This document shows positions 23,430-40,703 of a stretch of DNA of 54,152 nucleotides, piece after piece. A model generated the notes under the pieces. It was not told where the DNA came from, made no database searches, and saw only the letters and a program-made list of their open reading frames with translations. The DNA is from Candidatus Kaiserbacteria bacterium RIFCSPLOWO2_01_FULL_45_25 (GTDB taxonomy: Bacteria > Patescibacteriota > Minisyncoccia > Phycocordibacterales > UBA918), in NCBI GenBank assembly GCA_001781415.1, contig MFLT01000006.1, positions 9,387 to 63,538 of the forward strand. The letters are read 5' to 3'. The first letter of the stretch is position 1, and each line of letters opens with the position of its first letter. The position numbers were made by a program, and so were the translations under genes.

Positions 23430-24482
23430 ATGCAAAGTGAACATAAAGTCATTGATTTGTTCTGTGGTATTGGCGGCCTCTCTCATGGTTTTGTAAGAAG
23501 TGGTTTTAATGTAGTTGCTGGTGTAGATAATGACAGTGCTTGTAAGTATGGTTTTGAGCAGAACAACAAAGCGCAATTTGTAGATGGCGATATCTTAGAC
23601 ATTACTTCAGATCAATTAAATGATTTGTACGGTGATGTTAAGGGAATGAAGATATTGGTTGGCTGCGCGCCTTGCCAGCCGTTTTCTAAACTTAATACCA
23701 GAGGTATAACCGATAAGCAGTTACAGCCTCTCGAAAAGTTTGCACAGCTAATATCTGATATTCAGCCGGATATAGTTTCAATGGAAAACGTGAAAGGGTT
23801 GCTAAAAAATCCCATATTTGAAAAGTTCCTAGAAAATCTTGATGAAAATGGTTATCACTACTCGTACCAAATAGTTAATTTTTCTGATTATGGTGTGCCA
23901 CAAAATCGGTTCCGTTTGGTTCTCCTTGCATCTAAACATGGTGAAATTAATTTGATACCTCCTACTCACTTAAATAAAAAGAAAACAGTTAGAGATACTA
24001 TTGCGCAGTTAGAGGCGATTACTGACGGTCAGGTTTCTGAGAAAGATCCGCTTCACAGAGCAAGATCACTTAGTCCACTAAATAAGAAGCGTATAAAAGC
24101 TACGCCAAAGGACGGAGGCAACTCTCGTAGTTGGAGTGACGATCTTGTTTTAGAGTGCCACAAAAAGAATACCGGCAACTCTTATAGAGGAACTGTGTAC
24201 GGGAGAATGAGCTGGGACGAACCGTCACCTACAATGACCACGCAATGTACTGGACTTGGTAATGGCCGCTATGGTCATCCGGAGCAAGATCGCGCAATTA
24301 CTCTCCGGGAAGCTGCTTTATTCCAGACTTTCCCTAAGAGTTACAAGTTTATTGCACCCACTGATCAGATTACAACCTCTAAACTAGCTAGATTTATTGG
24401 AAATGCTGTTCCTGTACGGGCTGGGGAGGTAATTGCAAAAAGTATAGAAAAGCATATTCTTGAACTCAATGCAAGAAAATAA
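23430..24482 (+). CDS. dcm: C5 DNA cytosine methyltransferase
   Basis: DLFCGIGG, APCQPFS, ENVKG, GVPQNRFR, GHPEQDRAITLREAA, IGNAVP. Confidence 0.95.
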   Translation: MQSEHKVIDLFCGIGGLSHGFVRSGFNVVAGVDNDSACKYGFEQNNKAQFVDGDILDITSDQLNDLYGDVKGMKILVGCAPCQPFSKLNTRGITDKQLQPLEKFAQLISDIQPDIVSMENVKGLLKNPIFEKFLENLDENGYHYSYQIVNFSDYGVPQNRFRLVLLASKHGEINLIPPTHLNKKKTVRDTIAQLEAITDGQVSEKDPLHRARSLSPLNKKRIKATPKDGGNSRSWSDDLVLECHKKNTGNSYRGTVYGRMSWDEPSPTMTTQCTGLGNGRYGHPEQDRAITLREAALFQTFPKSYKFIAPTDQITTSKLARFIGNAVPVRAGEVIAKSIEKHILELNARK

Positions 24483-26103
24483 CAACCCATTTGTATTTGA
24501 AATATCGCTGAGTATCTTAGACCATCTCGGGCGAAACCTTTATCGTAATTTCGTTACGATTTTAGGTGAAGCTATTTCAAACTCTTGGGACGCCGACGCT
24601 TCAAATGTGTGGATATATGTAGACGGAGACAATTTCGTAATTAAGGATGACGGTATTGGGATGGATTTTGGTGATTTTCAGGGAAAGTTTTTGAGAGTAG
24701 GCTATTCAAAGAGGAAGAATGATAATACGCTATCTGCAAAGGGCAGACCTTTTATTGGTAGAAAAGGTATTGGTAAATTGGCTTTACTCTCATGTGCTGA
24801 AAAAGTAAGTATAATTTCAAAAAAAGAAAATGGTGAGTATATTGGAGGTACGATCAATAATTCAATACTAGACCAAGTTATTAAGGATGATTTAAAGCCA
24901 GATCAGTATCCACTAGAACCACTAGATTTAAAAATATTTGCAAAGTATATAGAAGGTCACAATCAAGGTACCGTAATTCATTTTGAAAATGTTAGAGACG
25001 GTATTAAAAACAGCGTAGACTTTTTGAAGAAAATCACGGCGCTATATTTCCGATTTTCGCTAATTGATACATCTTTTAATATATATATTAATGATGACTT
25101 AATAACCCTGGAAGATGTTAAAGATTTGTCAGATAAGACCCAGTATTTATGGTCATTAAACAATTTTAGTGATCCTTTTATTGATGAAAATCTTTCGCAT
25201 ATTGAACAGGCACACAGAAAGAATTTTGAGTTACCGGAAGGTATATCTGGTTTCGTGGCTTCAGTTTTGACACCAAAAAATCTGAGCATTTTAGGAACAG
25301 GGGAACGAGTCAGTCTTGACTTATTTGTAAACGGAAGATTACGTGAAAGAGACATTTTGAAGAATACACCTACTGCTCGAATTGCAGAGAGCTATCTATA
25401 TGGACAAGTTCACTATAATGCATTAGATAAAGGGGAAGATAAGTTCACAAGTAGCCGTGAAGGAGTCGTGGCAGATGATCCTGAATATCAAGAGTTTCTT
25501 TCTGTAATAAAAGGTGTTGTCGCAGACATAGTGAATGATTGGGATAAGTTGCGTGTTAAAAATAGAGAAGAGGGTGATCCTGAGAATGAGAGAATTACAC
25601 CAAAAGAAAGAAAATCTCGCGAACTAGTTGGAGTTGTGACAAAAGAATATGCTACAAAGACTAAAGCAGACAACGTTAACACTTGGATGGATGAACTTGC
25701 TGACGATGCACAGTTTAATGTGCAGTCTTATACAGAATGCTTCGTTTCTGAAAATCTGGTGCGAAAATATATTACAGCAAAAAATATTCCAATGACTACA
25801 GTAGCGCAAGCTCAGATAACAGAGTGGAAAGATAGAGAGGTTGAAAATAAGAGACATGCAAACATAAATATTGACATCATGAGAACGGGTGAGGATATTA
25901 GTTATCTTGGAATGGATACACTTACATTTCTCGCTGACAATACAGGTACCGCTAACTCAATGAGGACCGACGCAAAAGAATATAAACCCCTTAGGAATGC
26001 TGTGATGCATACATCATTACTTACCGATGCAGCAAAGCTTAGATTGACTACAGTTTACGAAAACATCAAAGCTAGAATTAAGTCACTAATAAACCAACCA
26101 TAA
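24469..26103 (+). CDS. GHKL (MORC/MutL-like) ATPase with C-terminal RxxxxH (HEPN-like) motif
   Basis: EAISNSWDA, DDGIGM, GRKGIGKLA, GT box; C-terminal LRNAVMH; overlaps the dcm stop. Confidence 0.82.
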   Translation: MQENNNPFVFEISLSILDHLGRNLYRNFVTILGEAISNSWDADASNVWIYVDGDNFVIKDDGIGMDFGDFQGKFLRVGYSKRKNDNTLSAKGRPFIGRKGIGKLALLSCAEKVSIISKKENGEYIGGTINNSILDQVIKDDLKPDQYPLEPLDLKIFAKYIEGHNQGTVIHFENVRDGIKNSVDFLKKITALYFRFSLIDTSFNIYINDDLITLEDVKDLSDKTQYLWSLNNFSDPFIDENLSHIEQAHRKNFELPEGISGFVASVLTPKNLSILGTGERVSLDLFVNGRLRERDILKNTPTARIAESYLYGQVHYNALDKGEDKFTSSREGVVADDPEYQEFLSVIKGVVADIVNDWDKLRVKNREEGDPENERITPKERKSRELVGVVTKEYATKTKADNVNTWMDELADDAQFNVQSYTECFVSENLVRKYITAKNIPMTTVAQAQITEWKDREVENKRHANINIDIMRTGEDISYLGMDTLTFLADNTGTANSMRTDAKEYKPLRNAVMHTSLLTDAAKLRLTTVYENIKARIKSLINQP

Positions 26104-26160
26104 ATAGGAAAAGGGGGCAGGGACAATAAAGCTAAAAATCCCGTATTGTAATTTTAAGCC

Positions 26161-26191
26161 AAACTAAAACCGCCTTGGGCGGTTTTAGTTT
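26161..26191. terminator. Bidirectional terminator
   Basis: AAACTAAAACCGCC-TTG-GGCGGTTTTAGTTT. Confidence 0.75.
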
Positions 26192-26211
26192 GCTTCATTT
26201 TCGTTTAATTA

Positions 26212-26694
26212 CTATGAGCTTTTTACAACAATAAATTCATTTAACATCGCTAGGTATTGATCTACGATTTTTGGTTGGATTTTGCCGTGATGGAATGGTT
26301 TGACGGCACCTTTGTTTGCGATGATAGTATCCACTTGATCATAGAAGAAACCGTCTGGTGTAGCGATAAAGAGGGCAGCGTGCCGCCAGGATTTTTCTAT
26401 CTCCTTGGCAATGGCGTTTACTTTGCCATTAGTTCGTTTGGCCATGTATTTGATTTCAACCAAGGTCACATTGTGCGTGTCTTCGTTTACTATCGCATAG
26501 TCTGGTGCTTTGCGAACAATTTCTATCATTGCTCTAGCATCTTCGCTCTTAGGAGCTTTGGCTAGTTGGTGGACTACCTTTTCGTAGCCAAATTCTAGTA
26601 CGGTGTAGCCTTTAGTGTTGTGTATCATTTGTTCAAAGATAATTTCGGCAATCTTTCCCTTGATCAGTTCGTGGGTGAATTTGATGTTATTCAT
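26212..26694 (-). CDS. Putative PD-(D/E)XK nuclease-fold protein
   Basis: KGKIAE...PDYAIV...VEIKY. Confidence 0.65.
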   Translation of the reverse strand: MNNIKFTHELIKGKIAEIIFEQMIHNTKGYTVLEFGYEKVVHQLAKAPKSEDARAMIEIVRKAPDYAIVNEDTHNVTLVEIKYMAKRTNGKVNAIAKEIEKSWRHAALFIATPDGFFYDQVDTIIANKGAVKPFHHGKIQPKIVDQYLAMLNEFIVVKSS

Positions 26695-26755
26695 ATGCTG
26701 AAATTATACCTTTTGTGTAGTCATTCTATATAGATAGCTTGAACAAACAGGGGAG

Positions 26756-26776
26756 TAGGTGTAGAATTCACACTAA
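26756..26776. promoter_or_regulatory. NrtR-type operator (autoregulatory)
   Basis: TAGGTGT-AGAATTC-ACACTAA ends 1 nt before the nrtR ATG and overlaps a TAGAAT -10-like box. Confidence 0.7.
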
Positions 26777-26777
26777 T

Positions 26778-27452
26778 ATGTCACAAAAAGCCCCAGATAA
26801 ATTAAGGTTTGCCGCTATGGCGGTGGATGTGGTTTTGTTTGCTGTTGTCGATGGGAAGTTGTCGGTCCTCCTTGGTGAAGTAAATCGTCCCCCGTACTAC
26901 ACCAATATTGAAGCCTTTATCGGTGGGTTGATTTTTGCCAACGAGACGGCGGAGATGGCGCTCGAACGTCATATCAGAAGTAAGGCTGAACTAAAGAAGG
27001 CGTACACTGAGCAGTTGTATACCTTTAGTGAGATTGAACGCGATCCGCGTAATCGGGTGATCTCAATTAGTTATCTTGGACTGGTGCGACCGGATGCTTT
27101 GAAGCAAGAACTGTGTGAGGGACTCCGCTGGTGTGAAGTTAAGAAGCTGCCAAAGCTGGCGTATGATCATGATGAGATGTTTAAGGTAGCGATTAGTAGG
27201 CTTAAGGGGAAGATCTCTTATACCAACATCGCGCAGTACTTGCTGCCAAAAGAATTTACACTCAGTGAACTCCAGGCGGTCTACGAACTAATCTTGGGCA
27301 AGGAAGTAGATAAGCGAAACTTTAGAAAGAAGATTATTGCGCTTGATATGGTGGTGGAGACAGGTGAGATGCAGCAGGGAGTGAAGAATCGTCCAGCGGC
27401 TTTATATCGATTTACTTCTGAGAAGCTCACTGAACTACCACTACTGATTTAA
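26778..27452 (+). CDS. nrtR: NrtR-family regulator (degenerate Nudix + winged HTH)
   Basis: AVDVVLF, EQLYTF...RDPRNRVISISY, LAYDH, FTLSELQAVYE, DKRNFRKKI, RPAALY; the Nudix box lacks the catalytic glutamates. Confidence 0.92.
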   Translation: MSQKAPDKLRFAAMAVDVVLFAVVDGKLSVLLGEVNRPPYYTNIEAFIGGLIFANETAEMALERHIRSKAELKKAYTEQLYTFSEIERDPRNRVISISYLGLVRPDALKQELCEGLRWCEVKKLPKLAYDHDEMFKVAISRLKGKISYTNIAQYLLPKEFTLSELQAVYELILGKEVDKRNFRKKIIALDMVVETGEMQQGVKNRPAALYRFTSEKLTELPLLI

Positions 27453-27462
27453 GGAGAAGGGG

Positions 27463-27487
27463 AGAGCGGCCGCAAGGCCGCTCTTTT
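27463..27487 (+). terminator. Intrinsic terminator after nrtR
   Basis: AGAGCGGCC-GCAA-GGCCGCTCT followed by a T run. Confidence 0.8.
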
Positions 27488-27498
27488 GCTGTCTGTAA

Positions 27499-27559
27499 AT
27501 AGTGTAGTTTTGACAATAAGGTAATCTTGTATCATAACTTAGTGTAGTGTTGACACTAA
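27499..27559 (+). promoter_or_regulatory. Promoter with two NrtR-type operators
   Basis: ATAGTGT-N7-ACAATAA (27499-27519, overlapping TTGACA at 27510) and TTAGTGT-N7-ACACTAA (27539-27559, perfect arms), 40 bp apart. Confidence 0.8.
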
Positions 27560-27654
27560 TACAGGAGAGGAGTATCTTTGTGTCAGATATACACAAAGTA
27601 CTTCAGCCAAGTAAATGGTCGAAGTATCCGTTCTTTGACAGAAAGGAAATAATT

Positions 27655-28782
27655 ATGACGAACGCACTTGAGGTCGTCCGCGACCAGTTTGCCAAAGCCA
27701 GTCGGTTTGCCGATGTCTTTGGGTCACTGTCCGGAGCTGATCTTGATGAGAAGAAGCGGTTGCTGAAAAAGCAATACTCCATCCTCGCCAAGATGACTCA
27801 CCCGGACCGGGTGAGTGCTCCTGAAGTGGCTCTCGCGACAGCGGTGTTTGCCGAACTGTCTACTCTCTACCGTCGGGCGCAGGATGCGCTTGTGGCCGGG
27901 GTGTACGACAACAGCTTCATCCCTTCACGGGGTGGGGCGGCTAGTACCAAGGTGACCGTCTCAGCTGGTACGGCAACGTACCAGCTTGATGTGGAAGCAT
28001 ATCGGGAGGGAGACTTCTCGAACATCCACTTGGGTGAAGCGGCGGATGGGTCAAAAATCTTTGCGAAGATTGCGGCTGATCCCACGCTGAATCCCTACCT
28101 GGTCGGTGAAGCCAACCTGCTGGCGCAAGCCAGTAAGTTGGCGGCTCTGAAGGGTATTCTCCCGTTTTTGCCCAAGCTCCTTGATTCGGTCATTTTGACC
28201 GAAGCTGGGAACGAGCAGTACCGGGTGAACCTCTATGAGTACAAGCCAGGGTTTGTCTCGCTCACTGAAATCAAAAACGCTTTTCCGGGAGGACTTCCTC
28301 CTGAAGATGCGGCTTGGATTTTTAGGCGAGTACTGGGGCAGACGCTCGCAGCGAATATGCTGGGGGTTGTCCATGGGGCGATTGTGCCAGATCACGTCCT
28401 CGTGAATCCGCTGACACACGAACCTCTCCACATCGGCTGGGCACACGCTATAGAGCGGCCAGCTGAACGAAATGCCAAGCTCACCACGGTCATCGACCGC
28501 TTCAGTGACTGGTATCCACCGGAAGTCTTGGCCCGAGAAGTGCCGTCTCATCAAACCGACCTTTACATGGCCGGCAAGACGATGGTCTACCTCCTCGGGG
28601 GAGATGTGGCTCGTGACAGATTCCCGAGCCATGTGCCAGAGCCCTTGGTGCAATTGGTGCGGCGATGCCTTGAGACGAAAGTCGAGAAGCGTCCCCGCGA
28701 TGCCTTTGCACTCATGCAAGAGTTCACGAAAGTGATCGACAAGCTCTGGGGCAGGAAATATCGGCCGCTTCGGCTGCTGTAA
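27655..28782 (+). CDS. J-domain + Ser/Thr-kinase-fold fusion (probable pseudokinase)
   Basis: KKQYSILAKMTHPDR J-domain; IFAKIA, VVHGAIVPDHV, YPPE, DLYMAG, RCL..RP; AAAGGA SD before ATG 27655. Confidence 0.82.
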   Translation: MTNALEVVRDQFAKASRFADVFGSLSGADLDEKKRLLKKQYSILAKMTHPDRVSAPEVALATAVFAELSTLYRRAQDALVAGVYDNSFIPSRGGAASTKVTVSAGTATYQLDVEAYREGDFSNIHLGEAADGSKIFAKIAADPTLNPYLVGEANLLAQASKLAALKGILPFLPKLLDSVILTEAGNEQYRVNLYEYKPGFVSLTEIKNAFPGGLPPEDAAWIFRRVLGQTLAANMLGVVHGAIVPDHVLVNPLTHEPLHIGWAHAIERPAERNAKLTTVIDRFSDWYPPEVLAREVPSHQTDLYMAGKTMVYLLGGDVARDRFPSHVPEPLVQLVRRCLETKVEKRPRDAFALMQEFTKVIDKLWGRKYRPLRLL

Positions 28783-28816
28783 CTGTGAATCTAAACTGTA
28801 ACGCAAGGAGAGTATC

Positions 28817-29836
28817 ATGGGTGGTGGAACTTGGGACAGCGGCGCCTATTCAGCCGCAACTTCTGCTCGTCGCGCCTCTGGCATTGACGATTTCGATTAC
28901 ACCAACAAGGTGCGGTCGGGTACGGTATCGGGTATCCACCCGACGCTTGACCCACTCGGGATGAAGAACCCGGACTCGAGCAAGTATCGGTTCCCGCTTC
29001 GCGAGAGTCGAGACAGCGCTGAGCACCCGGATTCGATTCCGATTGCGATCATCTTTGATGTCACCGGTTCGATGCATTCGATCCCGACGGTGCTGCAGCA
29101 AAAGCTGACGCGCCTGATGGACGTGGTCATCGACAAGGCCGGCATTCCTGATCCGCAAGTGCTGGTGGGCGCCGTCGGCGACTCCATCAGTGACCGGTAT
29201 CCGCTTCAGGTGGGGCAGTTCGAGTCGAGCAACCTGTTTGACGAACAACTGCGCAACATCATCCTCGAAGGTGGTGGTGGCGGCCAAAGCATGGAATCCT
29301 ATGCGCTGGCCTACCGCTTTGCTGCAGACCACACGGCCACCGACGCGTTTGAAAAGCGCGGCAAGAAGGGCTACCTCTTCACCATGGGTGACGAGAAGCC
29401 CTGGCCAACGGTGACGGCGGCAGATGTCTCGCGCCTCTTTGGGGTCGAGGCGTCAGAAGACGAGACGGTGGAAAGTCTCATTGCTCGGGCCTCCGAGCGC
29501 TGGGAAATCTTCCACCTCTTCTCGCTTGATGGCAGCTACCGCAACGACAAGCAAGTGCACGACACCTGGCGCAAGCTCCTCGGTGAACGGCTTGTGATGG
29601 TCGAGGATTCGTCCTTGGTGTGCGAAATCATTGCTGGTATCGTGCACATGATGGAGACGGCCTACGACGTCGATCGGGTGGTGGGTGACATCGGCCTGTC
29701 CGGTGCGGCGGCTTCGGCCGTGAAGAATGCACTCGTGCCGGTCGGAACCAGTTCTTTGGTCGCCAAGCGGCAAGCCAGCGCGAGCGGCGCCCTCAAGAAG
29801 GGTGGAGCTGCCAGGGGTGGCGTGTCGCGGATCTGA
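28817..29836 (+). CDS. vWA-domain protein
   Basis: MIDAS DVTGSM, GGGG..ESY, MGDE; MGGGTW N-terminus; AAGGAG SD. Confidence 0.85.
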   Translation: MGGGTWDSGAYSAATSARRASGIDDFDYTNKVRSGTVSGIHPTLDPLGMKNPDSSKYRFPLRESRDSAEHPDSIPIAIIFDVTGSMHSIPTVLQQKLTRLMDVVIDKAGIPDPQVLVGAVGDSISDRYPLQVGQFESSNLFDEQLRNIILEGGGGGQSMESYALAYRFAADHTATDAFEKRGKKGYLFTMGDEKPWPTVTAADVSRLFGVEASEDETVESLIARASERWEIFHLFSLDGSYRNDKQVHDTWRKLLGERLVMVEDSSLVCEIIAGIVHMMETAYDVDRVVGDIGLSGAAASAVKNALVPVGTSSLVAKRQASASGALKKGGAARGGVSRI

Positions 29837-29859
29837 TCTTTCAGTTCCTTTACGTAACT

Positions 29860-29891
29860 GCGGCGACACCAATGGTGTCGCCGCTTTCTTT
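29860..29891 (+). terminator. Intra-operon hairpin (terminator-like)
   Basis: GCGGCGACACC-AAT-GGTGTCGCCGC followed by TTTCTTT. Confidence 0.65.
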
Positions 29892-29915
29892 ATCTCAAAC
29901 TATGGAGCATATATC

Positions 29916-31319
29916 ATGCATGCATCAATTGTGACTGACCTTGGCTTTGGTGATGCTGGTAAAGGCACCATGGTCGACTACTTGGCTCGCCAGACATCTC
30001 AGGCGGTCATCGTTCGCTTCAACGGCGGTGCTCAGGCCGCACACAACGTCCACACCGCCTGCGGGAAACATCACACGTTTTCGCAGTTCGGCAGCGGCAT
30101 GCTCGTCCCGGGTACGCGGACGTTTCTTTCGCACTACGTGTTGTTTGATCCGTTTGCGCTTAGGAACGAAGCGGACGCGCTCTCGAAGCTCGTCCCCGGC
30201 GACCCACTCTCTCGAGTGATTGTCGATGGTGGTGCGCTCACGGTTACGCCGTTTCAAAAGGCAGCCAACCGGGTGCGGGAATCGCTTCGTGGAGCCGGAC
30301 GTCACGGCAGTGTGGGTATGGGTATCGGTGAAACGATGGCCGACATGCTCACGTTTCCGGAATTGGCGGTCTACGCGCACGACCTGCGTGACCTGCCGCT
30401 TTTGTTCCAAAAACTGAAGCGGCAACAGGAGCTCAAGCAAGCGGAGTTTGGTGAAAGGTTGGCGGTTGTGTCCGAATCTGGTGTTTTGCCAGAGGAGGTG
30501 CGACTCCTGTCTGATCCGAACGCTCCGCGGTACATCGCCGAGACGATGGTCGAGCTCTCGCGGCGGTTTACGCTCGGCTCGATGAGTATCCTCAAACGCC
30601 TCTCGTACGAGCATCCACTCATCTTCGAAGGTGCACAGGGAATTCTGATCGACGAGTGGCACGGCTTCCATCCGTACACCACCTGGAGTACAAGCACCAA
30701 CAAGAACGCCAACGCGCTCTTGCGTGACTTGGGCTACCTGGGGCCGGTTAATCGCTACGGCGTGGTGCGGGCATATAGCACCCGTCATGGGCCAGGACCG
30801 TTTCCAAGCGAAGACCAAGGACTCACCATGGCCTTGCCAGACACGCACAACGTGTTTGGTCGGTGGCAGGGTGGTTTCAGGGTGGGGTGGCTTGATCTGC
30901 CACTCACGCGCTACGCGCTTGCGGTATCGGAAGGTACCGACACCATTCTGCTCACGCACCTTGATCGGTGGGCTCAGTTGGGAGAGAAGAAGGTGGTGAC
31001 TGCCTACGCAGTTGAGGCATCGGCATTGTCCACGCGTGAGCGAGCGGCGATTGTCGAGATGAAGGTGGCACGCCCGGTGGCAGGGAAGGTGTATATTGGT
31101 TCCTTCAGACCGAAGGAGACGCTTGAAGACCTGACCTACCAGGAGATGCTTGGAGACATACTCGGAAAGTCCGAGCCAGTCTTTGAGTACACTGAGCTTT
31201 CAGGCGAGGCGTACGCTGACTTTGTCGGTACGCGCCTTGGTCTCCCTGTCGGGGTGACTTCGTACGGGCGCACTGCTGCTGAGAAGCGCGAGCGGCTGTC
31301 ACTCCTCCAGGCTGCATGA
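29916..31319 (+). CDS. Divergent adenylosuccinate synthetase (PurA)-like ligase
   Basis: DLGFGDAGKG, RFNGGAQAAH, HGSVGMGIG, FEGAQG, PYTTWS, RAYSTRHGPGPFPSE, RVGWLD, THLD; GGAG SD before ATG 29916. Confidence 0.88.
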   Translation: MHASIVTDLGFGDAGKGTMVDYLARQTSQAVIVRFNGGAQAAHNVHTACGKHHTFSQFGSGMLVPGTRTFLSHYVLFDPFALRNEADALSKLVPGDPLSRVIVDGGALTVTPFQKAANRVRESLRGAGRHGSVGMGIGETMADMLTFPELAVYAHDLRDLPLLFQKLKRQQELKQAEFGERLAVVSESGVLPEEVRLLSDPNAPRYIAETMVELSRRFTLGSMSILKRLSYEHPLIFEGAQGILIDEWHGFHPYTTWSTSTNKNANALLRDLGYLGPVNRYGVVRAYSTRHGPGPFPSEDQGLTMALPDTHNVFGRWQGGFRVGWLDLPLTRYALAVSEGTDTILLTHLDRWAQLGEKKVVTAYAVEASALSTRERAAIVEMKVARPVAGKVYIGSFRPKETLEDLTYQEMLGDILGKSEPVFEYTELSGEAYADFVGTRLGLPVGVTSYGRTAAEKRERLSLLQAA

Positions 31320-31342
31320 ACAGTTCTTTGAACCACAACTAC

Positions 31343-31369
31343 AAACCGGACGCTTGCGTCCGGTTTTTT
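31343..31369 (+). terminator. Intrinsic terminator ending the operon
   Basis: AAACCGGACGC-TT-GCGTCCGGTTT plus T run. Confidence 0.8.
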
Positions 31370-31431
31370 ATGTGTAGGAATTTTGAATAAAAGAAAACCC
31401 CGCCTAGGCGAGGTTTGGTTGGTGGTCTGGT

Positions 31432-31782
31432 TTAGTTGAGGAGCTGCCTGGGCGGCAACGATTCGAGGTGACAGACATATACCGCGTCCTTGCCCAGGGC
31501 CACCAGACGAGCGTTGTTGGCGGGTAGTTCCCGCGCGAGGGACGGTTGTAATTCGGGAAGTACTTCCAGAATCGGTGCCAACACCGTTGCGTCTGCCACA
31601 CAGCAGGCGATTCTGCCTGGGGTGATGGGTTCGGTGGTCAGCCAAGGAATCAGGTCGGCATATTCCGAATCTGGTTCAATGCAAAGAACCACAATCTCCT
31701 CCAGGCTAAGCCCGCGTAGCGCTGCTGCTTCGTAAACAAGACTAGACAGCATTGCTTTCTGGAGACTAACAAATTTTTTCAT
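31432..31782 (-). CDS. Hypothetical protein, paralogue family member 2
   Basis: GGGAG SD before MKKFVS; similar to 16650..17075. Confidence 0.7.
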   Translation of the reverse strand: MKKFVSLQKAMLSSLVYEAAALRGLSLEEIVVLCIEPDSEYADLIPWLTTEPITPGRIACCVADATVLAPILEVLPELQPSLARELPANNARLVALGKDAVYVCHLESLPPRQLLN

Positions 31783-31801
31783 CAGATACTCCCAGGTGTG
31801 A

Positions 31802-32197
31802 TTAAGATAGGCGGCTATACTCCATAAGGATATCGCCAGCGGTAACTGCCTCTTCGTCCAAGTCCCCGAAGAAGCAGAGTATTCTGGCTCGGCCAGGCCG
31901 GCAGGGAGCCAAAATCTCTTCTTCCATCTCCGGCATGTTCTGGACTGCGTATTCACACAATAGCCAAGAGCAGTAACCAGTAGTAAAGCGCTGGTGCGGA
32001 TTTGGGAGAAAGGCTTCTTTGGGGTAATTGGTTGCTTCCGACAAAGCGTCAGCGTGAGCCGACCAAGTTGATTTGGTGTCAAAAACAAAGATGACTGGCG
32101 GTTTGAACTTTTGGCTCGCAATTGAAGCCAGGCGCTGAAGTTCATCGATGCGGGCTGCCATCTCGTTGGCGATCGGGGGCACTTTTGGTCTAAACAT
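31802..32197 (-). CDS. Hypothetical protein, paralogue family member 3
   Basis: GGAGG SD before MFRPK; G..SW..C...P motif shared with 16650..17075. Confidence 0.7.
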   Translation of the reverse strand: MFRPKVPPIANEMAARIDELQRLASIASQKFKPPVIFVFDTKSTWSAHADALSEATNYPKEAFLPNPHQRFTTGYCSWLLCEYAVQNMPEMEEEILAPCRPGRARILCFFGDLDEEAVTAGDILMEYSRLS

Positions 32198-32352
32198 GTT
32201 TTCCTCCAGACGGTTGAAAGAGCAGGATTTAAGCAAGAGTAGTCGGAAAAGAGTTTATTGTAAAGCCGCCTGCTAATTAAGGGAAAGGGGCAGGACGATG
32301 AAACTAAAGACCTTCCTTGAAAAACCGTAAATTTGTGATATAATCACAAATA

Positions 32353-32958
32353 ATGAATAACTTTAAACCAGGAGGACAAAGAAATCGTAAAGAATTTCTT
32401 GGTGGTCGCCCTAAGTCAGATGCAAACTATGGACCGAAGAAACGATTTGAAAGTAACGACCGGGGACCACGCCGTGATGATCGTGGTGGGGAACGAAAAA
32501 TAGAACTATTTACTACCGCTTGTACTACCTGTGGTAAGTCGTGTGAGGTACCTTTCAAACCAGATGGCACTAAGCCGGTATTGTGTCGGGACTGTTTTGC
32601 TGCCAAAAACGCTGGCGGGGACAATGCTCGTAGTGGCAATCGTTCTACTAGTAATGACTTTGCACCGCGCAAGCCAGAGCGTTCATTTGATGCTCCGCGC
32701 GTAGAGCGAGCACCTGGTGTGTCTAGGGAAGACTTCGCTGCACTGTCTCGCCATGTCACAGCTCTAGATGCTAAGATCAATGAGATTCTCGCAATAGTGA
32801 AGACTGCCCATGCAACGGTTGAAAAGCCACCGGCGGCAGCTGAAGCTGCAACTGGAGAAGAGGTAACTATTAAGAAAGACCGCAAGCCTAAGAAGGCTGC
32901 AAAAGTGGTGAAGAAGACAGTTAAGAAAGCAGCGAAGAAGGTGACCAAAAAGAAGTAG
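32353..32958 (+). CDS. CxxC-x17-CxxC zinc-ribbon protein with Lys-rich tail
   Basis: CTTCGKSCEVPFKPDGTKPVLCRDCF; C-terminal KKAAKVVKKTVKKAAKKVTKKK. Confidence 0.88.
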   Translation: MNNFKPGGQRNRKEFLGGRPKSDANYGPKKRFESNDRGPRRDDRGGERKIELFTTACTTCGKSCEVPFKPDGTKPVLCRDCFAAKNAGGDNARSGNRSTSNDFAPRKPERSFDAPRVERAPGVSREDFAALSRHVTALDAKINEILAIVKTAHATVEKPPAAAEAATGEEVTIKKDRKPKKAAKVVKKTVKKAAKKVTKKK

Positions 32959-33021: not shown

Positions 33022-33297
33022 TTATCGCATCGATACCTTGAGAGACAAATCAAGAGCTTTTGCAATGCGTCCGAGTGTCTGCAGGGAAGGGTTGCCGTCT
33101 CCGCGCTCAAGGCGAGAGATCACTGGCTGGCGACTGCCAATGGCTTCAGCAAGCTCAGTTTGAGACCATCCACGCTTAATACGTTCTTTAATAATAGTTT
33201 TGACCACTTCATATTCTGGTCCAAGCATCTCGTACTCAGTTTTAGTAACTGGGTTCTTGAGTGCCTTGGCCTTAAATTGTTTGAATGTAGTACTCAT
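33022..33297 (-). CDS. XRE/HigA-like HTH antitoxin
   Basis: WSQTELAEAIGSRQPVISRLERG..PSLQTL; lies downstream of a RelE-type gene. Confidence 0.88.
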   Translation of the reverse strand: MSTTFKQFKAKALKNPVTKTEYEMLGPEYEVVKTIIKERIKRGWSQTELAEAIGSRQPVISRLERGDGNPSLQTLGRIAKALDLSLKVSMR

Positions 33298-33303
33298 AAA
33301 GTA

Positions 33304-33325
33304 AATATAACTTATAAGTTATATT
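33304..33325. promoter_or_regulatory. Perfect 22-bp palindrome, probable antitoxin operator
   Basis: AATATAACTTATAAGTTATATT between the toxin and antitoxin genes. Confidence 0.65.
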
Positions 33326-33629
33326 ATTGCAAATGATCTTTTGCGTCTCGCGCTCGGTTTAATTCTTTGTCGAGTGTCTTTTGAGTCTTCTTTACACAAG
33401 CATGCAGCAAAACAGCCTGCTTGTTATGGAAACAATAAAATATTCTAATTTCTCTAGTTCCTCGTATGCGTAGTTCAAGCAGTCCGCCAGACATATGCTT
33501 GCTATGAGGCATTCCTAAGTCACTGCCAAATTCTTCTAGTAATTCAATTGTGCGAATTACCTTCGCAATTTCCTTTTCATTTAGTGATTCAAGAAATGTT
33601 TCCACTGAATCTAGTAGAATGATTTGCAT
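33324..33629 (-). CDS. RelE/HigB-like (Gp49-type) toxin
   Basis: LGMPHSKHM..GLLELR...RIFYCF...LLH...KKTQKT; start MQIIL at 33629. Confidence 0.88.
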   Translation of the reverse strand: MQIILLDSVETFLESLNEKEIAKVIRTIELLEEFGSDLGMPHSKHMSGGLLELRIRGTREIRIFYCFHNKQAVLLHACVKKTQKTLDKELNRARDAKDHLQ

Positions 33630-33718
33630 AAAGTAATTATAACAAAAAACATCACTGCATAGAGTGATGTCTTTGTGCCTGCACCGCGAAGCTTGAGGAG
33701 CTTGCGACGAAAGCGAAG

Positions 33719-34239
33719 TGGTGGAGATGTGGAGAATCGAACTCCAGTCCGAATCAGGTACCACATTGTGAGTCTACAGTGCGTAGTCTCTCCTTTGTAA
33801 GACTTCTGTACTGAGGGAATTTCTTTGTCGTTACGATTTTTTATACAGTCATCGTAGATTTACTACGCCTTCTGTTTAAAAAAATCTAAACTCCGCGAAC
33901 TCCATCTCAGTACAGAAGTCTTTTTAAAATTAGTATCTATAGAAGCGACAAAACAATACTAATTCGAGTTGTTACAATCTTGAACCTAGAAGACAACGGC
34001 AACTAGATCCACAGCCTCGTGGCTATTCTACAACTGAAACGTATGAGGCGTTTATCTCAGTCGCATCACTCCGGATCTAGACGAATGGTTACGCTAGAGC
34101 GGGAGCGAATCCAAACGCGTTAGCGTATGGACTTGGTATTGCTTTGTTTGCAAATACGGATGGAACCTTTTAGCGAATTGGTTACCATTTTCGACACTGC
34201 ACACAATGGGTAGGCTAACCGTCGATGCCTAGCATCCCC
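33719..34239 (-). ncRNA. ssrA: tmRNA (521 nt, with internal insert)
   Basis: 5' GGGGATG pairs with 3' CATCTCC-ACCA (G3.U70); T-arm GGAG-TTCGATT-CTCC; tag ORF 34151-34089 ANKAIPSPYANAFGFAPALA*; directly downstream of smpB. Confidence 0.95.
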
Positions 34240-40536: not shown

Positions 40537-40630
40537 TGCTTTAAGTATAGCATTGCGATTTTGGCTGACCTTTGCGTTTTACAGAGGTGGTTTATGCGGG
40601 GACCATGCGTTATATGAATTCAATATTTTG

Positions 40631-40703
40631 TCCATCCACCTGGACTCGAACCAGGGACCATGCGTGTATAAGACGCAGGCTCTACCAACTGAGCTATGGA
40701 TGG
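40631..40703 (-). tRNA. tRNA-Ile (anticodon UAU)
   Basis: CCATCCA acceptor; GCTC/GAGC D-stem; TGCGT-CT-TAT-AC-ACGCA anticodon arm; CCTGG-TTCGAGT-CCAGG T-arm; discriminator A; CCA not encoded. Confidence 0.88.

Follow-up and report, generated by a model that had tools for sequence, protein, structure and literature searches.

A PurA-like enzyme with rebuilt substrate pockets and its conserved gene cassette in Candidatus Kaiserbacteria

The gene analysed here encodes a PurA-like enzyme of Candidatus Kaiserbacteria bacterium RIFCSPLOWO2_01_FULL_45_25 and is located within 54,152 nucleotides of contig MFLT01000006.1 (assembly GCA_001781415.1, positions 9,387 to 63,538 of the forward strand). This whole stretch is referred to as the window, and coordinates without a locus name are positions in it. 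The enzyme gene is the last one of a cassette, in which it follows the genes for an NrtR-like repressor, a J-domain pseudokinase and a protein with a vWA domain and its metal-ion-dependent adhesion site (MIDAS). The enzyme is a member of the PF00709 superfamily that fails the tests for both PurA proper, the adenylosuccinate synthetase (AdSS, EC 6.3.4.4), and PurZ, and it most likely runs a nucleotide reaction that has not yet been described. The genes of the cassette and the signal at its end are given below.

26778..27452, plus strand: NrtR-like repressor with a Nudix-like sensor and a winged helix; the likely start is ATG 26778, the listed open reading frame (ORF) begins at TTG 26739
27655..28782, plus strand: J-domain (HPD) protein with a kinase-fold pseudokinase; likely start ATG 27655, 375 amino acids; the listed ORF has 411 amino acids from GTG 27547
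28817..29836, plus strand: vWA (MIDAS) partner, 339 amino acids; DVTGSM and GDE motifs, N-terminal Met-Gly, frequently a C-terminal Arg-Leu/Ile tail
29916..31319, plus strand: predicted PurA-like GTP-dependent ligase, 467 amino acids, substrate pockets rebuilt; last gene of the cassette
31343..31366, plus strand: intrinsic-terminator-like hairpin ending the operon, 10 pairs (6 GC) and a T-run

The enzyme and its substrate pockets

The reading frame at 29916-31319(+) comprises 467 codons and is translated without a stop. An alternative longer ORF from ATG 29727 runs into the upstream gene. Homologues align from the Met at 29916 and not from ATG 29727, and a GGAG is located 8 nucleotides 5' of 29916. 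All motifs named in the first-pass annotation, which had been made from the letters of this stretch, are present in the translation: GFGDAGKG (residues 10-17), GGAQAAH (37-43), EGAQG (238-242), HNVFGRWQGGFRVGWLD (311-327) and THLD (347-350). PF00709 was matched with an E value of 1e-55 and 189.7 bits (cut-off 27) over profile positions 2-357 of 416, and relatives of the enzyme carry the source annotation adenylosuccinate synthase. The NCBIfam equivalog models of purA yielded scores below their cut-offs (NF002223, 150.9 bits versus 402; TIGR00184, 129.4 versus 395.55), as did the PurZ model NF038379 (35.5 bits versus 300). Neither the enzyme nor the vWA protein has a match in PADLOC-DB 2.0, a collection of anti-phage defence systems, at E<=0.01. 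Fused longer forms of the enzyme (819-2335 amino acids) were not found at E<=1e-30, which is weak evidence.

An AlphaFold model of the enzyme, built on 40 relatives, reached a predicted local distance difference test score (pLDDT) of 94.1 and a predicted template-modelling score (pTM) of 0.93. In a Foldseek comparison, the full length of this model was aligned with E. coli AdSS (1cg3), with an E value of 5e-32 and template-modelling (TM) scores of 0.76/0.82. The best structural matches are long bacterial and eukaryotic AdSS (TM 0.72-0.83); PurZ/DgsS and the short archaeal enzymes fit less well (TMq 0.52-0.61). In this comparison with PurA and PurZ, which the first-pass annotation had proposed, PurZ itself reaches a TMq of 0.52-0.56. 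Compared to E. coli PurA, the enzyme contains two insertions, one of 34 residues (371-404; about 23 of them confined to its subclade) and one of 15 residues (190-204), and it lacks the 16 residues that correspond to E. coli 376-391.

For the comparison of individual residues, E. coli PurA, four canonical PurAs from other genomes and 40 clade members were aligned. Invariant in all 40 members are G12, D13, G15, K16, G17, H43 (E. coli H41), Q241 (Q224), T256 (T239), R322 (R306) and D350 (D333). This set includes the catalytic core of PurA, i.e. the P-loop GDxGKG with Asp13, His41 and Gln224, which was found in 40/40 clade members. Among the guanine-binding elements, D350 is retained throughout, and K331 is replaced by His or Cys. 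The C-terminal guanine-binding SxGP motif reads S449-Y-G451-R, with an Arg in place of P417 in the enzyme studied; S449 (S414) is conserved in 37 and G451 (G416) in 39 of the 40 sequences. Judged by these residues, the enzyme has retained its phosphotransfer core and the greater part of the GTP site.

The pockets for the other two substrates differ from those of PurA. The aspartate loop of E. coli PurA is G-x-T300-T301-G-R303-x-R305, and its aspartate ligands are numbered T300, T301, R303 and R305 in the literature of Honzatko and Fromm. At these positions, the clade contains a Trp instead of T300 (W317; 39/40) and a Gln instead of T301 (Q318; 40/40); R303 is deleted in all 40 members, and R305 is replaced by Phe in 37. 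The absence of the aspartate-binding loop, as claimed in the first-pass annotation, was borne out, the main changes being shared by 39-40 of the 40 members. Of the ligands of the 5'-phosphate of inosine monophosphate (IMP), T239 alone is kept. N38 is replaced by Gln in 40/40 sequences, T129 by Cys in 35 and by Val in four, R131 by Met or Leu across the alignment, and R143 by Glu in 20 and by Asp in seven, with the alignment being less secure around R143. Further replacements are Q34 by Asn, I126 by His, Y235 by His, S240 by Trp and V273 by His (each 40/40), and P135 by Glu (39/40).

The role of these positions can be seen from the AdSS of H. pylori. As described in PMC11571797, the IMP phosphate is held there by Asn37, Thr121, Thr230 and by Arg135 of the other subunit, the ribose is held by Val264 and Arg294 (its 2'-OH by Arg294), Asp12 touches N1, and Arg294 and Arg296 bind an anion at the hadacidin/aspartate position. 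By alignment order, the H. pylori residues correspond to N38, T129, T239, R143, V273, R303, D13 and R305 of the E. coli enzyme. The PDB titles among the structural AdSS matches name the mutants R143L, R303L and K16Q.

The alignment indicates that the anion-binding side chains for aspartate and the IMP phosphate have given way to neutral, aromatic or acidic ones, with T239 kept. Because the same replacements in the aspartate site occur across phyla, they argue for selection and not for drift. The statement of the first-pass annotation that the GTP and IMP motifs are kept holds for the equivalents of D13, H41, Q224 and T239, which are invariant, but not for N38, T129, R131 and R143, which have changed. 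The conserved core speaks for an active enzyme that, like PurA, would first transfer phosphate from GTP to an oxygen of its substrate and then let a nitrogen nucleophile displace this phosphate. The uniform changes in the pockets speak against a canonical mode of binding for free aspartate and for a plain nucleoside 5'-monophosphate alike.

The host genome comprises 962,770 bases on 13 contigs and is 98.3% complete. Its sole PF00709 match is the enzyme gene, and the designation of the enzyme as a PurA paralogue had to be given up for this genome, which contains no second PF00709 gene. True paralogues exist in Embleya, Spirillospora, Myxococcus and Oscillochloris, where a clade member (196-216 bits) and a canonical PurA (577-616 bits) occur together. 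Neither PurB (TIGR00928) nor any Lyase_1 protein (PF00206) was matched in the host genome. Among 151 sampled genomes of the host's class, 11 contain a high-scoring PurA (318-540 bits), and eight of these also have a Lyase_1 gene. A low-scoring PF00709 gene alone is present in 11 further genomes, and only one of these has Lyase_1. In six of the 151 genomes (the host genome G000, and G087, G071, G143, G070 and G120), the low-scoring gene adjoins a match to the profile of the vWA partner; none of the six contains Lyase_1 or a canonical PurA. In a seventh genome, G014, the enzyme gene is located on a short contig. Given the rebuilt aspartate loop, the equivalog scores below cut-off and the lack of PurB and Lyase_1 matches in the genome, the use of free L-aspartate is very unlikely, in agreement with the first-pass annotation.

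These data bear on two alternative explanations. An ordinary, fast-evolving AdSS that serves purine salvage in reduced genomes is very improbable: the annotation of the relatives, the PF00709 score well over the cut-off and the status as sole member in the genome would fit, but the aspartate residues are replaced alike across phyla, the equivalog scores are far below the cut-offs, PurB is lacking here and in all six cassette genomes of the class, and a canonical PurA coexists in four of four large genomes. It is also rather improbable that the enzyme is a PurB-independent AMP synthase, in which 6-phosphoryl-IMP would react with ammonia or a small neutral amine to AMP or an N6-substituted AMP. 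A 0.96 Mb genome that lacks purine synthesis would benefit from such an enzyme. The proposal would agree with the retained residues for 6-O phosphorylation, with an aspartate pocket closed by hydrophobic residues, and with the lack of PurB and canonical PurA in the cassette genomes of the class. However, the IMP 5'-phosphate ligands T129, R131 and R143 are replaced, and the sporadic occurrence of the cassette (6/151 genomes of the class) does not resemble a housekeeping route. Moreover, large genomes with both PurA and PurB keep the cassette as well, and the obligatory vWA protein is left unexplained.

The cassette, its protein partners and its spread

A scan with one genome per species yielded at least 595 loci with a relative of the enzyme, and the best 80 were used for the neighbourhood counts. 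Conservation of the neighbours was assessed by tblastn of the neighbouring proteins of the window against these 80 loci, which span Saccharibacteria and other members of the Candidate Phyla Radiation (CPR), Chloroflexota, Actinomycetota, Myxococcota, Proteobacteria and others. The vWA gene was found in 75/80 loci, 73 times upstream and twice downstream of the enzyme gene. In the remaining five, the enzyme gene begins at most 306 bases from the start of the locus, so that no upstream DNA is available. The vWA partner, which the first-pass annotation had taken into account, is thus real and nearly obligatory. The J-domain pseudokinase is encoded in 64/80 loci, and an NrtR-like regulator upstream of the enzyme in 39/80. 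Clustering of the flanking ORFs of 78 loci did not yield an additional partner in more than 11 loci, but spurious ORFs in high-GC DNA make this result less sharp.

The model of the vWA partner has a pLDDT of 87, and its first ten residues have a pLDDT of 80. In Foldseek, this model is matched best by integrin I-domains and by the vWA domain of SpaC, with E values of about 4e-7 and a probability of 1.00. The MIDAS residues D81-x-T83-G-S85 and G191-D192-E193 are invariant. There is no Pfam match at E<=0.01; a profile made for the partner detected 1095 representative clusters (50% identity) at E<=1e-30. The N-terminus is strikingly uniform: the protein begins with Met-Gly in 31/31 aligned orthologues and in 131 of 137 full-length representatives with less than 50% mutual identity, and 127 of the 137 match MG-x(2,3)-x-[WYF]. 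One locus, L005 (3000-4439 and 4526-5872), encodes a vWA protein that starts with M-K-T-S (GTG start, good ribosome-binding site) together with an enzyme that contains a Pro instead of Trp317; it is the sole such pair among about 70. In a Chloroflexota-type locus (L043:5988-6974), the vWA orthologue has an in-frame stop and is maybe a pseudogene or the result of an assembly error.

The partner upstream of the vWA protein combines a J-domain-like N-terminus with a kinase fold. HPD is present in the window protein and in most orthologues, with a Pfam DnaJ score of 17.1 bits that is below the cut-off of 27.8; in some orthologues, a Cys4 ribbon replaces the J domain. The kinase motifs are degenerate. 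HRDLKPEN has become HGAIVPDH, i.e. HRD is changed to HGA and the catalytic Asp is missing, and DFG is changed to DWC/GW. In PADLOC-DB, the pseudokinase has weak matches to kinase domains (MkoA, mad6, PD-T4-6).

The cassette is also carried by phages. Relatives of the enzyme were found in 239 phage records, 201 of which are from Mycobacterium phages (40-46% identity). Phage Bxz1 encodes, in the gene order of the cassette, gp247 ("kinase"), gp248, the small gp249 and gp250. In gp247, the HPD and HGA motifs are present, and gp248 contains a C-terminal DRL and, internally, the conserved MGSGAW start that is seen in all cellular orthologues. In the annotation, gp248 (L082, 5665-6720) begins 12 codons 5' of this conserved start, which is probably too early. 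The RefSeq name of gp250, "2-aminooxy adenylosuccinate synthetase", is not supported by the sequence.

The conserved N-terminus of the vWA protein offers a candidate for the attacking amine. The GTP-activated C6 of a purine could be attacked by the alpha-amino group of the vWA N-terminal glycine after removal of the Met, which would yield an N6-linked AMP on the vWA N-terminus. Although this is unlikely, it is the chemistry with the most specific sequence support of the three specific ones considered, the others being the AMP synthase and the rebuilding of NAD+ described below. It would account for the Met-Gly start in 31/31 and 131/137 proteins, for the MG-x(2,3)-x-[WYF] pattern in 127/137 and for the same MGSGAW in Bxz1 gp248. 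A peptide N-terminus has no free carboxylate, as would suit an enzyme that lacks Arg303 and Arg305 and has a Trp/Gln/Phe pocket instead, and a lyase would be unnecessary, which matches the absence of PurB. The only pair without Gly2, at L005, is also the only one with a Pro for Trp317, which is a single case. Furthermore, a terminator-like hairpin between the two genes (see below) would lead to an excess of the vWA protein over the enzyme. On the other hand, the first ten residues of the vWA protein are fairly ordered and maybe packed on its own domain, and the changes at the IMP phosphate site would be left unexplained. We know of no precedent for an N-terminal, N6-linked AMP modification of a protein, no search aimed at it having been made.

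In a weaker form of this proposal, the vWA N-terminus would block the active site in the manner of a pseudo-substrate, and DnaK, recruited via the J-domain pseudokinase, would remove the plug. It is similarly doubtful that the pseudokinase with DnaK and the NrtR-type repressor set the timing of an N-terminal AMP mark, as a switch common to many phyla and to large mycobacteriophages; the activated C6 would then be that of a hypoxanthine nucleotide. The first-pass annotation had suggested that a different amine or a protein is coupled to the nucleotide to give a modified nucleotide or a signal. For the protein, the vWA N-terminal glycine (Met-Gly in 131/137) is now a candidate, whereas no result speaks for a signalling role. 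The NrtR control, the J-domain pseudokinase and the carriage by phages were no part of that annotation. A predicted complex of enzyme and vWA protein had a score of 0.00 without controls and counts neither for nor against binding. Docking of the C-terminal Ala-Ala of the enzyme into the MIDAS was dropped as an idea, since this tail is conserved in the CPR subclade only.

The three cassette genes at 27655-31319 have a G+C content of 56-60%, with 63-73% at third codon positions. The window as a whole has 46%, and the adjoining restriction-modification (RM) genes have 36-40%. This contrast points to horizontal acquisition, and the cassette region has the appearance of a mosaic made up of horizontally acquired segments. 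The RM genes, the 160- and 237-codon ORFs described below, a zinc-finger gene and the Gp49 gene recur among the 80 loci only in the near-identical L002. Because of this confinement, the other neighbours were rejected as members of the cassette.

Directly upstream of the cassette, at 23430-26103, the gene of a C-5 cytosine methyltransferase (PF00145, 216.8 bits) overlaps that of a restriction enzyme of the BbrUII/HgiDII family (NF050001, 273.9 bits, below cut-off). The two form a type II RM pair, which is not conserved in the 80 related loci. The flanking ORFs at 26212-26694(-) and 31432-32145(-), with 160 and 237 codons, are shared with L002 only and have no Pfam, NCBIfam or PADLOC match. At 33022-33764(-), a Gp49/HigB-like toxin gene (PF05973, 78.6 bits) is followed directly downstream on the same strand by a 91-codon ORF; the two are possibly a toxin-antitoxin pair. 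A tRNA-Ile found by ARAGORN at 40630-40703(-) has the anticodon TAT and is not the usual lysidine-requiring CAT-type tRNA-Ile2.

Control of the cassette and its possible link to NAD

The regulator matches the winged-helix family PF21906 (NrtR_WHD) with 93.8 bits (cut-off 27) and NUDIX with 24.7 bits. Its Nudix box contains RHIRSK instead of the expected REUXEE, so that the catalytic glutamates are replaced. Known NrtR operators follow a consensus of 21-bp GT-N7-AC palindromes. Two promoter-like sites and four such palindromes were found at the cassette.

26739-26767: promoter-like site of the regulator, TTGAAC-17-TAGAAT
26756..26776, no strand: NrtR-type operator 1, TAGGTGT-N7-ACACTAA, 2 mismatches; over the -10 of the regulator promoter-like site; kept in L002
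27499..27519, no strand: NrtR-type operator 2, 2 mismatches; conserved in L002
27539..27559, no strand: NrtR-type operator 3, perfect TTAGTGT-N7-ACACTAA; over the -35 of the operon promoter
27550-27578: promoter-like site of the operon, TTGACA-17-TATCTT
27577..27597, no strand: NrtR-type operator 4, 2 mismatches (1 mismatch in L002); over the -10/start region of the operon promoter
29860..29884, plus strand: GC-rich hairpin with T-run between the vWA stop and the enzyme start, 11 pairs (9 GC), z -5.9

The 963 kb genome contains six sites with at most two mismatches to TTAGTGT-N7-ACACTAA, and four of these are located in the two promoter regions of the cassette. Of the other two, one is within an ORF and one is intergenic on contig C12; by simple arithmetic, about three such sites are expected by chance genome-wide. 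The palindrome occurs two to three times in the matching intergenic regions of L002, L003, L004 and L006, whose proteins are 44-97% identical, and the position of operator 3 is occupied by perfect or near-perfect copies in all four. The features of the NrtR family, namely a Nudix-like domain, a winged helix and palindromic operators at the targets, were thus all found. ADP-ribose is the presumed ligand of the regulator.

The spacer between the vWA and enzyme genes was folded for four CPR loci (window 29837-29915; L003:6911-6985; L004:6902-6988; L006:6894-6979). A stable, GC-rich hairpin was found in 4/4, in differing sequences, with z values of -4.0 to -5.9 and a U-tract in three. The hairpin at 29860-29884 may terminate or attenuate transcription within the operon and thereby set how much vWA protein is made relative to the enzyme. 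An Rfam scan of 26000-32400 gave nothing near a gathering score, and the spacer hairpin does not represent a known RNA family.

A link to NAD is apparent in some of the neighbourhoods. In L003, a saccharibacterial locus with an enzyme of 49% identity, the cassette is divergent from nrtR, which is followed by genes for an ADP-ribosylglycohydrolase (ARH), a 364-aa NadM-like Nudix protein and NAMPT/nadV. In L004, ARH and NadM-like Nudix genes adjoin the cassette. Within the class sample, NrtR is present in 21/151 genomes and in 4/6 cassette genomes, and it adjoins the cassette in G000, G087 and G120. Elsewhere in the class, several genomes have NrtR within about 2-8 kb of a gene of the nicotinate phosphoribosyltransferase (NAPRTase) family, and a strong match to this family is lacking in all six cassette genomes. 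This twofold association of NrtR, with NAPRTase-family genes or with the cassette, should be read as a pattern and does not amount to a statistical test, since the genomes are few and related.

It is conceivable, although quite unlikely, that the enzyme itself rebuilds NAD+. GTP would phosphorylate the anomeric 1''-OH of ADP-ribose (or ribose 5-phosphate), and nicotinamide would displace the phosphate to give NAD+ (or NMN), as a GTP-driven counterpart of NARP1, a phage pathway with two enzymes. Phages are reported to rebuild NAD+ from ADP-ribose and nicotinamide (10.1101/2024.02.11.579819, PMC12774641, PMC13464706), and the enzyme is present in the 201 Mycobacterium phage records. The NrtR-type control, the NAMPT, NadM-like and ARH neighbours in L003 and L004, and the alternation of NrtR between NAPRTase-family gene and cassette are consistent with such a role. 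The invariant Trp257, Trp317, Phe251, Phe321, Glu139 and Glu247 could accommodate a ribosyl cation together with a nucleophile that is aromatic and neutral. However, this chemistry is derived from context alone, and displacement at an sp3 anomeric centre is not PurA chemistry. In addition, the retention of Asp13, Gln224 and Thr239 suggests an acceptor that resembles a purine nucleotide, what the vWA protein and the pseudokinase contribute is not explained, NAD-salvage genes are adjacent in just 2/80 loci, and the cassette is also kept by large genomes whose NAD pathways are complete. The last observation also led to the rejection of the enzyme as a substitute for NadE, together with the finding that the only "NAD synthase" match of the host genome is MnmA.

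The explanation that we favour, at slightly better than even confidence, is less specific. The enzyme would be a PurA-fold, GTP-dependent ligase that is not an AdSS, does not use aspartate and serves a conditional function linked to NAD/ADP-ribose. The gamma-phosphate of GTP would be moved onto an oxygen of a nucleotide-type substrate to form a phosphate ester, from which an uncharged nitrogen nucleophile would displace the phosphate, both substrates being other than IMP and aspartate. The aspartate pocket has turned neutral and aromatic (Trp-Gln and Phe, with Arg303 gone), and the cationic clamp for the IMP 5'-phosphate has been dismantled. The enzyme would be the enzymatic end of a cassette with the vWA/MIDAS protein and usually the J-domain pseudokinase, whose J domain presumably recruits DnaK. 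An NrtR-like repressor, of a family that senses the NAD breakdown product ADP-ribose, would switch the cassette. The reaction would most likely serve NAD/ADP-ribose-linked nucleotide turnover, and large phages would have borrowed the cassette. NrtR control, occasional NAD-salvage neighbours, carriage by phages, sporadic spread and the obligatory vWA protein, taken together, speak for a conditional NAD/ADP-ribose function and not for housekeeping AMP synthesis. The fold, the kept and altered residues, the make-up of the cassette, the operators and the lack of PurB are direct observations; on the basis of sequence and gene context, we infer the catalytic activity and the chemistry of the enzyme, the roles of its two partners and the ligand of the regulator.

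Several points weigh against this explanation. The enzyme could be inactive. The retained T239, Q224 and D13 are also compatible with an IMP-like acceptor, and the alignment of R143 is less certain than that of the other positions. The regulator scores 128.1 bits with the equivalog model NF050029 and is below the cut-off of 400, members of the NrtR family can sense other ligands, and the regulator is not adjacent to the cassette in 41/80 loci. NAD-salvage genes are adjacent in only the two loci mentioned above, and ARH in a third. In the host genome, no NAPRTase-family (NadV/PncB), NadE, SIR2, NadM-like or ARH gene was found, and no homologue of the NadV, NadM-like and ARH genes of L003. A source of ADP-ribose therein is, as judged from the gene content, hard to see. 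Its only cytidylyltransferase-like gene resembles RfaE-II plus cupin, and there is no clear nicotinamide mononucleotide adenylyltransferase (NMNAT). The 0.96 Mb genome contains 13 Nudix-domain ORFs.

Comparison with known systems

A literature search, to which supplements did not belong, yielded no paper on the enzyme clade or the cassette. No paper was found that joins adenylosuccinate with NrtR or with NARP1, and the combinations of adenylosuccinate synthetase with vWA and J domain, or of NrtR with von Willebrand, retrieved unrelated papers only. The term "PurA-like" is used in phage genome announcements that merely name a gene and otherwise in unrelated work.

The arrangement of the cassette recalls pairs of a vWA/MIDAS adaptor and an ATP-driven remodeller that activate enzymes, such as CbbQ-CbbO, NorQ-NorD, CoxD-CoxE and BchI-BchD. 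As in the cassette, a MIDAS vWA protein is encoded there beside the enzyme that it presumably serves, together with a protein that would bring in a chaperone-type ATPase. In contrast to these systems, the remodeller of the cassette would be DnaK recruited by the J-domain pseudokinase and not a MoxR AAA+ protein.

With the NrtR regulons of NAD salvage (nadV-nadM-prs type), the cassette shares the NrtR-type repressor and palindromes and, in L003 and L004, the NAMPT, NadM-like and ARH neighbours. With the phage pathways NARP1-3 it shares carriage by phages. The NARP enzymes are reported to be a Prs-like Adps and a NAMPT-like Namat, NadV and NMNAT, and, in NARP3, PnuC and NadR (PMC13464706 for NARP3); unlike the enzyme studied here, none of them has the PurA fold. 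Finding the reaction of the enzyme would add a new nucleotide-ligase chemistry and explain a widespread, NrtR-controlled set of genes, and it would probably show how bacteria and phages handle NAD/ADP-ribose stress. In ultrasmall Saccharibacteria without recognisable purine and NAD pathways, the enzyme may be among the few that handle nucleotides. If the vWA N-terminus were indeed the attacking amine, the N6-linked AMP mark would be a kind of modification not described so far.

Compared to PurA (1CG0/1CG3, 6ZXQ/8QWA), the enzyme has the same fold, P-loop, Asp13, His41, Gln224, Thr239, the Asp of the (T/N)KxD motif and the SxG motif. It differs in the rebuilt aspartate loop and phosphate clamp, in the replacement of K331 by His or Cys, in equivalog scores of about one third of the cut-offs, in the lack of PurB in its genome and in being encoded with a vWA protein. 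PurZ/DgsS and PurZ0 (7ODX, 6FKO, 7VF6), the succino-2-amino-deoxyadenylate synthases of phages, are likewise phage-carried enzymes in which the PurA fold was repurposed for another substrate. However, PurZ uses aspartate, has about 340 residues and is of the archaeal type, whereas the enzyme has 467 residues, scores 35.5 bits with the PurZ model (cut-off 300) and fits 7odx with a TMq of 0.55. To our knowledge, PurZ is so far the only known repurposing of PurA. The clade described here, with its at least 595 loci, its fixed partners and both of its substrate pockets rebuilt, would be a second and much larger branch.

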